Assembly: GCF_003334815.1 (NCBI RefSeq)
Contig: NZ_QOWO01000001.1
Length of the DNA stretch: 64,000 bases
Strand: one strand, 5' to 3'
Source: Escherichia coli
GTDB lineage: Bacteria > Pseudomonadota > Gammaproteobacteria > Enterobacterales > Enterobacteriaceae
The notes beneath the pieces were generated by a model. That model was given only the letters and a program-made list of their open reading frames with translations, ran no database searches and was not told the DNA's origin. Positions 11,116 to 52,780 of this stretch are shown here, one piece after another. The translations under genes were made by a program, and so were the position numbers. Each line of letters starts with the position of its first letter. Position 1 is the stretch's first letter.

Positions 11116-13251
11116 TTACTCGCCCTGTTCAGCAGCCGGAGCTTCCGGTGCTGCAGCAGGTTGAGACTGCTCAGTCGCTTCTTTAATGCTCAGACGGATA
11201 CGGCCCTGGCGATCAACTTCCAGAACTTTCACCGGTACTTCCTGACCCATCTGCAGGTAATCGGTCACTTTCTCAACGCGTTTGTCAGCGATTTGAGAGA
11301 TGTGGACCAGACCTTCTTTACCGCCGCCGATGGCAACAAATGCGCCAAAGTCAACGATACGGGTCACTTTACCAGTGTAGACGCGGCCCACTTCGATTTC
11401 TGCAGTGATCTCTTCGATACGACGAATAGCATGTTTCGCTTTCTCGCCGTCGGTCGCTGCAATCTTCACAGTACCGTCATCTTCGATTTCGATGGTGGTG
11501 CCAGTTTCTTCGGTCAGAGCACGGATTACAGAACCGCCTTTACCGATAACATCTTTGATCTTGTCCGGGTTGATCTTGATGGTATGGATACGCGGTGCGA
11601 ACTCAGAGATATCGCCACGCGGCGCGTTGATCGCCTGTTCCATTACGCCCAGGATATGCAGACGCGCACCTTTAGCCTGGTTCAGCGCAACCTGCATGAT
11701 CTCTTTGGTGATACCTTCAATTTTGATATCCATCTGCAGTGCAGAGATACCGTCGCGGGAACCTGCAACTTTGAAGTCCATATCGCCCAGGTGATCTTCG
11801 TCGCCCAAAATGTCAGACAGTACAACGTAGTTGTCGCCTTCTTTCACCAGACCCATTGCGATACCCGCAACGGCAGCTTTGATCGGCACACCTGCGTCCA
11901 TCAGCGCCAGAGACGCGCCGCACACGGAAGCCATAGAAGAGGAACCGTTGGATTCAGTGATTTCAGACACAACACGTACGGTGTACGGGAATTTGTCCAT
12001 ATCCGGCATGACTGCCAGCACGCCGCGCTTCGCCAGACGACCGTGACCAATTTCACGACGCTTCGGAGAACCGACCATGCCGGTTTCGCCTACGGAGTAC
12101 GGAGGGAAGTTGTAGTGGAACAGGAAGGTATCGGTACGTTCGCCCATCAGTTCATCAAGAACCTGCGCGTCACGAGCAGTACCCAGCGTTGCGGTAACCA
12201 GCGCCTGCGTTTCACCACGGGTGAACAGCGCAGAACCGTGAGTACGCGGCAGCACGCCAGTACGCACATCCAGACCACGGATCATATCTTTTTCACGACC
12301 GTCGATACGCGGTTCGCCTGCCAGTACGCGGCTACGAACAACGTTTTTCTCGATCGCGTGCAGAATTTCACCCAGTTCGTTTTCGTCCAGGGTTTCGTCT
12401 TCAGCAAGCAGCGTCGCGATGGTTTCAGATTTGATGACATCAACCTGCGCATAACGCTCTTGTTTGTCGGTGATGCGGTAAGCATCGCTCAGGCGAGCTT
12501 CAGCCAGTGCAGCAACGCGCGCGTTTAGCGCTTCGTTTACCGGCTCCGGCTGCCAGTCCCAACGCGGTTTACCGGCTTCTTTCACCAGTTCATTGATGTT
12601 CTGAATAACAACCTGCTGTTGTTCATGACCGAACACTACTGCGCCCAGCATCTGGTCTTCGCTCAGCAGTTGAGCTTCAGATTCAACCATCAGTACAGCG
12701 GCTTCAGTACCGGCAACAACCAGATCCAGTTTGCTCTCTTTCAGCTCGTCCTGAGTCGGGTTCAGTACGTACTGGTCATTGATGTAACCTACGCGGGCAG
12801 CACCAATCGGGCCATTGAACGGAATACCAGACAGAGACAGCGCTGCGGAAGCACCAATCATCGCGACGATATCCGGGTTAACTTGCGGGTTAACAGAAAC
12901 CACGGTGGCGATAACCTGAACTTCGTTGACGAAGCCTTCCGGGAACAGCGGGCGAATCGGGCGGTCAATCAGACGCGCGATCAGGGTTTCGCCTTCGCTT
13001 GGGCGGCCTTCACGACGGAAGAAGCTACCCGGGATACGACCAGCAGCGTAGGTACGCTCCTGATAGTTAACGGTCAGTGGGAAGAAGTCCTGACCTGGTT
13101 TGGCTTTTTTCTGGCCAACAACGGTAACGAATACCGCGGTGTCATCCATGCTAACCATAACAGCGGCAGTAGCCTGACGAGCCATCATGCCGGTTTCCAG
13201 AGTCACGGTGTGTTGGCCGTACTGGAATTTACGAACGATCGGATTAAGCAA
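11116..13251 (-). CDS. pnp: Polynucleotide phosphorylase (PNPase)
   Basis: ORF track 11116..13338; start set to the TTG at 13249-13251 giving 711 aa ([12 protein letters not shown]); RNase PH, KH and S1 domains. Confidence 0.95.
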
Positions 13252-13299
13252 TGTAATATCCTTTCTCTTTCTTAGACAGTACCTTACGGCACTGGTGTT

Positions 13300-13485
13300 A
13301 ATACCCGATCTTCTGCGCATCCTCGCGACTAATGACAACCCTAACCCAGCTCTATGTGGGTAAAGCCTCTCATTAGCCGCGCGAACCTCTGCAACGGAAG
13401 ATCATTCATAGCAACAATACATTAGTTTCCAGTGAATTGCTGCCGTCAGCTTGAAAAAAGGGGCCACTCAGGCCCCCTTTTCTGA
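13300..13485 (+). ncRNA. sraG: Probable SraG (PsrO) sRNA, antisense to the pnp leader; boundaries approximate
   Basis: Placed from recall of an sRNA in the rpsO-pnp intergenic region opposite pnp; the shared hairpin at 13454-13482 could terminate a plus-strand transcript. Exact ends not determinable here. Confidence 0.3.
13454..13482 (-). terminator. rpsO Rho-independent terminator (hairpin usable on both strands)
   Basis: Minus strand AGGGGGCC-TGAGT-GGCCCCT followed by TTTTTT, directly after rpsO stop. Confidence 0.85.
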
Positions 13486-13497
13486 AACTCGCAAGAA

Positions 13498-13863
<366 letters not shown>

Positions 13864-13875
13864 TTAAGCGGCAGT

Positions 13876-13904
13876 ATTCTACTCGTAGCGACCTGTTATC
13901 GCAA
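13876..13904 (-). promoter_or_regulatory. rpsO sigma70 promoter
   Basis: Minus strand -35 TTGCGA (13899-13904), 17-bp spacer, -10 TAGAAT (13876-13881), just downstream of truB stop. Confidence 0.7.
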
Positions 13905-13915
13905 GACGGTTAACA

Positions 13916-14860
13916 TTACGCCGGGTATTCAACCACCAGGCGACGAGGCGCAACGCGGCCTTCATCGTCAATTTCGCCCATACCGATAAATTTGCCGTTC
14001 TCACCTTCCGTGACGCGAACCAGTCCTTCCAGTGGCGCACCAGATGTACGAACCGGGTTACCATTTTTGAAGTAAACAGAAGACGTTAACGGAAGATTCA
14101 CCACCGGATAGTCCGAAGCTGGACTGTCCATTGGCATCAGTAATGGATCAAGTAACTCCGCGGCTGGAATATCCTGCTGTTCAGCTTGCTCAACAAGTTC
14201 ACGCAGGTGCTCCAGGGTCACCATCCGTTCAACCGGATATTTACTTACCGCCAGACGGCGCAGGTAAATAACATGCGCGCCACAGCCGAGTTTTTCACCC
14301 AGGTCATCAATGATGGTGCGGATATAAGTGCCTTTTGAGCAGTGAATTTCCAGCTCCAGCTCATTGCCTTCATGGCGAATAAACAGCAATTCATAAACGG
14401 TAATCGGACGCGCTTCACGCGGAACTTCAATGCCCTGACGCGCATATTCGTACAGTTTTTTGCCCTGATATTTCAGTGCTGAATACATCGAAGGGATCTG
14501 TTCGATATCGCCACGGAAAGTATCCAGTGCCGCTGCCAGCTGCTCTGCGCTAAAGGTTACCGGACGTTCTTCAACGATCTGTCCGTCGGCATCAGAAGTA
14601 TCGGTACGCTGTCCAAGACGCGCAATGACCCGATAGCGTTTGTCGGAGTCCAGCAGATACTGGGAAAACTTCGTCGCTTCCCCGAGGCAAATCGGCAACA
14701 TGCCGGTCGCCAGCGGGTCCAGCGCACCGGTATGCCCGGCACGGTTGGCGTTATATATACGTTTCACTTTTTGCAGCGCATCGTTGCTGGACATACCCTG
14801 AGGTTTATCCAGCAACAAAACGCCGTTAATGTCGCGACCGCGACGACGAGGACGACTCAT
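13916..14860 (-). CDS. truB: tRNA pseudouridine-55 synthase TruB
   Basis: ORF track 314 aa. Confidence 0.95.
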
Positions 14861-15337: not shown

Positions 15338-15405
15338 GACCTGATAAGACGCGCCAGCGTCACATCAGGCAATCCATGCCGGATGCAGCGTAAACGCCTT
15401 ATCCC
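15338..15405. repeat. Pair of REP elements downstream of infB
   Basis: GACCTGATAAGACGCGCCAGCGTCACATCAGGC and GCCGGATGCAGCGTAAACGCCTTATCC. Confidence 0.7.
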
Positions 15406-15424
15406 GCATGGAACCCTAAAAACC

Positions 15425-20089: not shown

Positions 20090-20145
20090 GCCCACCCCCA
20101 AGACATAAAAAAAGGGCCTAAAGCCCAGTTATTCTGTAGTCAGAT

Positions 20146-20171
20146 AACAAAAAACCCCGATAAATCGGGGC
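20146..20171 (-). terminator. Rho-independent terminator/attenuator between metY and rimP
   Basis: Minus strand GCCCCGAT-tt-ATCGGGG followed by TTTTTTGT; a second weaker GC hairpin plus T7 lies at 20107-20126. Confidence 0.7.
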
Positions 20172-20295
20172 TTTATATAACTGAACCCTATAACCGCAAC
20201 TGCGGTCTGGAGCACTTTCCAGAAGGATTTTTTCAAATCCCACTACGAAGGCCGAAGTCTTCACAGTATATTTGAAAAAGGACTCTAAGGGAAAG

Positions 20296-20372
<77 letters not shown>

Positions 20373-24154: not shown

Positions 24155-24241
24155 TGGTACCGAGGACGGGACTTGAACCCGTAAGCCCTATTGGGCACTA
24201 CCACCTCAAGGTAGCGTGTCTACCAATTCCACCACCTCGGC
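24155..24241 (-). tRNA. leuU: tRNA-Leu (GAG anticodon)
   Basis: Reverse complement reads GCCGAGGTGGTGGAATTGGTAGACACGCTACCTTGAGGTGGTAGTGCCCAATAGGGCTTACGGGTTCAAGTCCCGTCCTCGGTACCA, 87 nt. Confidence 0.95.
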
Positions 24242-30892: not shown

Positions 30893-30926
30893 AAAAAAAT
30901 ACCGACCCGGGTACAAGTCCCAGGTC
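30893..30926 (-). terminator. graL: Hairpin plus U-run in the greA leader (probable terminator generating GraL short transcripts)
   Basis: Minus strand GACCTGGG-ACTTGTA-CCCGGGTC then GGTA and TTTTTTT, about 95-130 nt upstream of greA ATG. GraL assignment from recall. Confidence 0.5.
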
Positions 30927-31045
30927 AGCTACAATTCACATTTTGATAGTCATTTTACCCTGAAGTTCCCGAAGGGTCATCGTTTACTTTATAGGGCGTT
31001 GCGCCGTAGTATGACGGCTCGATTCCAGGTTGTTAGCGCGAGATT

Positions 31046-52659: not shown

Positions 52660-52780
52660 GTGCGGCCTGAAAAACAGTGCTGTGCCCTTGTAACTCATCA
52701 TAATAATTTACGGCGCAGCCAAGATTTCCCTGGTGTTGGCGCAGTATTCGCGCACCCCGGTCTAGCCGGGGTCATTTTTT
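52660..52780 (+). ncRNA. arcZ: ArcZ (RyhA/SraH) Hfq-dependent sRNA, convergent with arcB
   Basis: Sequence GTGCGGCCTGAAAAACAGTGCTGTGCCC...GCGCACCCCGGTCTAGCCGGGGTCATTTTTT matches recalled ArcZ (121 nt) with terminal hairpin CCCCGGTCTAGCCGGGG plus T6; 3' end overlaps arcB stop. Confidence 0.9.

Follow-up and report, generated by a model that had tools for sequence, protein, structure and literature searches.

The sraG antisense RNA in the rpsO-pnp interval of Escherichia coli and its bidirectional terminator

Genes and features of the rpsO-pnp interval

The window, that is, the whole stretch of 64,000 nucleotides of E. coli DNA analyzed here (contig NZ_QOWO01000001.1), carries rpsO and pnp on the minus strand, separated by an intergenic stretch of 246 bp (positions 13252-13497). 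To place this interval on a reference map, positions 13230-13520 were aligned with the genome of E. coli K-12 MG1655 (NC_000913.3), which gave 291 identical columns out of 291 (100%); window coordinates are those of the MG1655 record minus 3297917. At this locus the record lists nlpI, pnp, the ncRNA gene sraG (b4449), rpsO, truB, and rbfA (RefSeq). An 801-bp segment around the interval was present in all 5426 complete E. coli genomes, with at least 99% identity in 5407 of them. The identity and coordinates of the features, as well as the family match, the folds, and the conservation described below, come from the present analysis (Table 1).

The reading frame of pnp opens with TTG CTT AAT CCG on the minus strand (translated as M L N P I V R K). 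The TTG start at 13249-13251 given in a preliminary description of this DNA agrees with the sequence, the translation, and the RefSeq CDS. In the list of open reading frames, pnp is stretched to an in-frame upstream TTG at 13338 (11116-13338, minus strand, 740 aa); we rejected this start as an artefact of a frame that is open through the leader, since annotation and conservation both point to 13251. The preliminary description also placed a 245-bp leader before pnp. The leader is there, but the gap measures 246 bp, and because the pnp promoter P2 lies inside it, the whole gap is the leader only of rpsO-pnp transcripts that read through from P1.

Several other elements were recorded along the window. 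The S15 leader (RF00114) scored 117.6 bits at 13711-13825 on the minus strand, upstream of and into rpsO, and the Term-seq table holds a minus-strand 3' end at 3311707-3311708 (window 13790-13791) labelled "S15 binding". A naRNA4 or REP-type element (RF02564) in the rbfA-infB part of the operon, at 15338-15408, scored 68.1 bits on the minus strand and 27.1 bits on the plus strand, the latter under the threshold of 59.5. In keeping with the MG1655 map, Rfam and ARAGORN placed the rimP leader at 20107-20207, tRNA-Met (metY) at 20296-20372, tRNA-Leu (leuU) at 24155-24241, the greA leader at 30894-31015, and the ArcZ sRNA at 52660-52767. A promoter-like site (TTAACA-16 bp-TAACCT) was seen on the plus strand at 12890-12917, within the pnp coding region.

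Table 1. Positions of the features of the rpsO-pnp interval in the window.
Feature	Position	Strand	Basis and remarks
rpsO	13767-13498	-	89 aa; sequence, translation, RefSeq
rpsO stop codon TAA	13500-13498	-	Sequence, RefSeq
Bidirectional intrinsic terminator (T1 for rpsO on -; T for sraG on +)	13454-13481	both	Sequence, scan, energies, PMC5029454
pnp P2 -10 region: TAATGT 13424-13419 or TATTGT 13419-13414	13408-13424, including predicted start	-	Hexamer scan
RNase III hairpin R (core)	13316-13393	-	Folds; RNAalifold, 37 species; mirrored more weakly in SraG
Strong RNA 3' end	13370	-	Adams et al. 2021 Term-seq, coordinate 3311287
Second leader hairpin	13277-13294	-	Just 5' of the SD; folds
pnp Shine-Dalgarno (SD) AAGGA	13259-13263	-	7 nt upstream of UUG; read from sequence
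pnp start TTG (UUG)	13251-13249	-	Sequence and translation; RefSeq CDS end at same base
sraG (psrO, b4449) primary transcript	13266-13481	+	216 nt; RefSeq 3311183-3311398; circular RT-PCR, Northern blots (PMC5029454)
Rfam RF00082 SraG match	13310-13481	+	Roughly the older 174-nt annotation 13308-13481
PSraG -10 hexamer TAATAT	13254-13259	+	-12 to -7 of the mapped +1 at 13266
PSraG candidate -35 TTACGA	13229-13234	+	19-bp spacer, within the pnp coding region; weak, predicted

The SraG transcript and the bidirectional terminator

A plus-strand match to the Rfam family SraG (RF00082) lies between rpsO and pnp, both of which are on the minus strand; it scored 164.3 bits (E = 6e-31; gathering score 50) and covered model positions 1-177 of 177. 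Northern blots have detected SraG RNAs of approximately 215 and 190 nt (Fontaine et al. 2016, RNA 22:1560, PMC5029454), and circular RT-PCR with and without polyphosphatase showed that the primary transcript begins 42 nt before the 174-nt RNA of the older annotation (Argaman 2001), at whose start none of the clones began (PMC5029454). The mapped start is a T, as is window position 13266; adding 42 to 13266 gives 13308, and 13308-13481 spans 174 nt, so the positions agree with both published lengths. The RF00082 model keeps to the older annotation, and its match therefore begins 44 nt downstream of the 5' end mapped for the primary transcript. Since the Rfam and the mapped 5' ends differ, boundaries taken from an alignment to "annotated sraG" depend on the source of the annotation. 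The preliminary description had named SraG as a plus-strand RNA antisense to the pnp leader and had left its ends unfixed. The RefSeq entry, the Rfam score, and the published work (PMC5029454) bear out this assignment, and alignment to the annotated gene, at 100% identity, now sets the ends at 13266 and 13481.

The -10 hexamer of the SraG promoter (PSraG) occupies the spacer between the SD and the start codon of pnp and overlaps the last base of the SD. When this hexamer is mutated, the 216-nt RNA is gone and the shorter forms are down ninefold (PMC5029454). A lack of any plus-strand start would have spoken against the antisense RNA; this point is answered by the primary start demonstrated in PMC5029454, where the circular RT-PCR and the mutant devoid of the RNA concur. 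The candidate -35 element has 7 of 12 matches in a permissive hexamer scan. A strict sigma-70 consensus scan recovered neither PSraG nor pnp P2, and both appear in the permissive scan only, which makes promoter calls from sequence alone weak at this locus. SraG is poorly expressed in standard media (PMC5029454). Among the entries listed, the Cappable-seq supplement has no transcription start at 3311183 or 3309205, and the Term-seq data of Adams et al. 2021 have no sraG entry.

When compared with shuffled sequences, the SraG fold gave a z of -2.88. We also considered whether the plus strand encodes a small protein instead of a non-coding RNA. Three ORFs of 14 to 23 codons do lie within 13266-13481, but the 14 nt before each of the 3 hold nothing resembling an SD, and all 3 run into the apex of hairpin R, where species differ by indels, so that their reading frames are not kept. 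With neither an SD nor a conserved frame, a small protein in SraG is extremely improbable and was rejected.

On the plus strand, the terminator reads A6 (13454-13459), GGGGCC (13460-13465), ACTCA (13466-13470), GGCCCC (13471-13476), C (13477), and T4 (13478-13481). It thus consists of a stem of 6 G-C pairs with the loop ACTCA (13460-13476), followed by UUUUUU on the minus strand and CUUUUC on the plus strand; because an A tract precedes the stem and a T tract follows it, each strand yields a hairpin and then a U run. The hairpin with its tracts had an energy of -19.9 kcal/mol on the minus strand and -15.7 kcal/mol on the plus strand. A consensus scan of 13100-13950 returned 5 terminator-like sites, against 0.8 expected, and the rpsO/sraG terminator is one of the 5. 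The preliminary description had seen U-tracts on both sides of the rpsO hairpin; A6 and CTTTT indeed flank the stem, and bidirectional use is published: the rpsO terminator T1 and the sraG terminator are the same, and the major SraG 3' end is there (PMC5029454). Among the entries listed in the Term-seq data of Adams et al. 2021, neither strand shows a 3' end at 33113xx-33114xx.

Altogether, the interval almost certainly is the published sraG gene, whose product is a cis-antisense RNA that has the rpsO terminator in common with rpsO and fine-tunes pnp. No evidence contradicting this identification was found. The locus is already known, being annotated in RefSeq and Rfam with its mechanism published in 2016, and it therefore raises no new question. 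A reader without any tools was nevertheless able to recover a real antisense sRNA and the common terminator from the letters of the DNA.

Structure and conservation of the pnp leader

On the minus strand, the 271-nt leader had a folding energy of -100.9 kcal/mol (z = -5.87), and none of 200 shuffles was as stable. Within the fold lie the terminator, hairpin R, a small hairpin that covers the region of P2, and the hairpin at 13277-13294 before the SD. The RNase III hairpin, for which folding of the leader had been proposed as a check, is thus present. The hairpin at 13277-13294 falls within the 42-nt 5' part of SraG required for repression. A hairpin of 7 to 11 bp close to the SD occurs in nearly all of the 51 Enterobacterales described below, with differing sequences and a mean energy of -14.5 kcal/mol, compared with -9.4 kcal/mol for shuffles.

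The strong minus-strand 3' end at 13370, which the Term-seq data label as antisense to psrO, maps to the 5' arm of hairpin R, 119 nt ahead of the pnp start. Two RNase III sites have been located in the leader, RIII1 at +39 and RIII2 at +77, RIII1 being counted from the P2 start (PMC5029454). The 3' end fits RIII1, and from this assignment, which we infer, and the +39 position of the site, the P2 start would lie near 13408-13409. The P2 leader would then measure about 157-158 nt and overlap SraG over about 143-144 nt. The P2 block GCAACAATACATTAG is conserved in the Enterobacteriaceae alignment.

Species-representative genomes were scanned with a conserved rpsO word, which returned 120 loci, 104 of them with both genes. 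Among these 104 loci, 51 are from Enterobacterales, including the MG1655 reference, and the rpsO-pnp gap is present in all 51. The pnp start codon is TTG or GTG in every one of them, and the pnp SD, TCCTT on the plus strand, is nearly invariant in their alignment. From Escherichia to Providencia, hardly any change is seen in the lower stem of hairpin R (CCTCGCGACTAATGA ... TCATTAGCCGCGCGAA). The terminator stem GGGGCC/GGCCCC was identical in all 49 species, of the 51, in which a pattern search located it. RF00082 exceeded its threshold at each of the 14 tested Enterobacterales loci whose gap lay inside the fetched DNA (lowest in Plesiomonas, 60.9 bits) and gave no score in Aeromonas. As to the length of the gap, five loci with gaps of 335-397 bp carry insertions of approximately 100-150 bp, and 2382 bp separate rpsO from pnp in Shewanella indica, which may be due to an inserted element. 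An IS at the rpsO-pnp site has been reported in Yersinia pestis (PMC5029454).

The structure differs between the 2 strands. Hairpin R, with 26 pairs of which 7 show compensatory changes on the pnp strand (RNAalifold, 37 species), had a lower folding energy as pnp RNA than as SraG RNA in all 51 species, by a mean of 14.9 kcal/mol. In the consensus helix, 97.9% of the cells are paired on the pnp strand versus 82.1% on the SraG strand, and 151 cells are G.U on the pnp strand versus 1 A.C, a count that leans to the pnp strand because the structure was derived on that strand. A consensus fold computed independently for each strand gave 15 pairs and -11.9 kcal/mol for the reverse complement versus 26 pairs and -26.2 kcal/mol for the pnp strand. 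The signals that serve only the antisense RNA vary more. The -10 hexamer of PSraG is an exact TAATAT in 21 of the 51 Enterobacterales, among them representatives of Citrobacter, Yersinia, and Photorhabdus; TTCTAT (as in Klebsiella or Kluyvera), TTCTGT (as in Enterobacter cloacae), TTTTAC, or TCTTTT replaces it in several members of Enterobacter, Klebsiella, Kluyvera, and Pluralibacter. Within 8 nt past the terminator stem, the SraG side has 4 to 6 T in Enterobacteriaceae; only TTT adjoins the stem in Yersiniaceae, Pectobacteriaceae, Hafniaceae, Budviciaceae, and Morganellaceae. The tract on the rpsO side always has at least 6 T in 8.

Taken together, the strand-asymmetric hairpin, the -10 box intact in a minority of species, and the shrinking T tract suggest that conservation is driven mainly by the sense-strand mRNAs. 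Judged by these comparisons, 2 sense-strand RNAs look sufficient to explain most of the conservation of the region and most of the score of the Rfam model. It is conceivable, and we put it forward only tentatively, that the "SraG family" is largely the reverse complement of the rpsO terminator and the pnp RNase III hairpin, that the antisense promoter is lineage-specific, and that genera with a degraded -10 (in our sample, for example, Enterobacter, Klebsiella, Kluyvera, and Pluralibacter) make little or no SraG despite their membership in the Rfam family. Since the sense mRNAs explain the conservation of RF00082 at least as well, a match elsewhere is not proof of antisense expression, and a caution of wider use follows: an Rfam SraG match in another genus does not mean that the antisense RNA is expressed there.

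A stronger reading of the same data is that SraG itself is a by-product, in which case constraints on the sense mRNAs would account for both the conservation and the Rfam match and the RNA would be a low-level antisense transcript with little selected function. The greater stability of hairpin R on the pnp strand, the excess of G.U over A.C cells, the 26 pairs found by RNAalifold versus 15 on the SraG strand, the -10 hexamer intact in only a minority of species, and the TTT tract outside Enterobacteriaceae are all in line with this reading, as are the small published effects, the lack of any trans target found in E. coli (PMC5029454), and a study of Dickeya with APERO in which SraG was not detected under the conditions used. 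On the other hand, the -10 mutation raises pnp mRNA and PNPase 1.3-fold, and with the full-length RNA, but not with the form shorter by 42 nt, the 30S toeprint disappears and pnp expression falls (PMC5029454). Besides, an older autoregulation mutation lies in the same -10 box, SraG has been seen in E. coli and studied in Yersinia, and it is among the ProQ-associated antisense RNAs of a Salmonella/E. coli study (PMC5391140). We consider it unlikely that SraG is a mere by-product, and a cis-acting regulator of pnp remains the preferred reading.

Regulation of pnp by SraG and comparison with known systems

The function of SraG as a regulator of pnp is documented by published experiments. Over-expression of full-length SraG lowers pnp mRNA, pnp-lacZ activity, and PNPase, and SraG without its first 42 nt does not lower pnp expression (PMC5029454). 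In vitro, the 30S toeprint on pnp is lost with SraG but not with the form shorter by 42 nt, and RNase III acquires new cleavage sites in the duplex of SraG with pnp (PMC5029454). Conversely, the PSraG -10 mutant contains approximately 1.3-fold more pnp mRNA and PNPase, and this -10 box is also the site of the older autoregulation mutation (PMC5029454). The published regulatory effect is small, 1.3- to 2-fold (PMC5029454). The SraG 5' end sits 2 nt from the AAGGA core of the pnp SD and leaves the SD uncovered, in agreement with PMC5029454.

Another explanation is that SraG acts mainly in trans on distant mRNAs with the help of a chaperone, Hfq or ProQ, and that its effect on pnp is secondary. 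Hfq binds SraG in vitro at 0.49 nM (PMC5029454), SraG is in the list of ProQ-associated antisense RNAs mentioned above, and repression of YPK_1206-1205 has been reported in Yersinia pseudotuberculosis (PMC5029454). However, deletion of hfq in E. coli leaves both the amount of SraG and its effect on pnp-lacZ unchanged, none of ten candidate targets obtained from microarrays and target prediction was confirmed by Northern blot (PMC5029454), and the Yersinia targets have no homologues outside the genus. A mainly trans-acting role is therefore improbable, and we return to the regulation of pnp in cis.

The following scheme best accounts for this regulation; its transcript ends, promoter, toeprint block, and RNase III cuts come from published experiments. 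In order, the minus strand carries the rpsO terminator T1, pnp P2, hairpin R, whose cleavage by RNase III starts the autoregulation of PNPase, the smaller second hairpin, and finally the SD and UUG start of pnp. On the opposite strand, SraG is transcribed from T13266 under control of the -10 box at 13254-13259, crosses the whole pnp leader in antisense, and stops at U13481, at the GC hairpin flanked by an A tract and a T tract. The 216-nt RNA pairs perfectly with the pnp 5' UTR to within 2 nt of the SD, and pairing both blocks 30S loading and creates new RNase III sites in the duplex. As a result of these 2 effects, pnp mRNA and PNPase are modestly lowered, as reflected in the approximately 1.3-fold change when SraG is removed.

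Compared with known systems, the RNA described here and E. coli K-12 SraG/PsrO (b4449, RF00082) are the same gene, with 100% identity and the same position, strand, promoter, and terminator. Likewise, the minus strand carries, with no difference, the leader studied in the work on E. coli pnp and its RNase III-dependent autoregulation (Portier, Regnier, Hajnsdorf, Jarrige, Carzaniga; in PMC5029454); what the present analysis adds is that its lower stem is nearly invariant and its G.U pairs are conserved across 37 to 51 Enterobacterales. Antisense RNAs with the same neighbourhood and orientation as SraG are known, by description, at rpsO-pnpA in Listeria (RliD) and Enterococcus (ref41), with no high sequence homology to SraG reported (PMC5029454). 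The terminator resembles the bidirectional terminators between or within convergent transcription units surveyed by Ju, Li and Liu 2019 (cited in PMC7815308) in having a GC-rich hairpin with A and T tracts that functions on both strands. Here, however, the 2 RNAs that end at it are not from 2 convergent protein genes but are the mRNA of a ribosomal protein and an antisense sRNA contained entirely in the operon, and its plus-strand tract is the weaker one (CUUUU versus UUUUUU). As in the pairs SymR/symE, GadY/gadXW, and AsflhD/flhD, SraG is perfectly complementary to a 5' UTR, the duplex is cut by RNase III, and the cis effect is independent of Hfq. In contrast to SymR, GadY, and AsflhD, SraG ends 2 nt upstream of the AAGGA core and so leaves the SD uncovered, and it fine-tunes pnp on top of the autoregulation by RNase III and PNPase and of CsrA.
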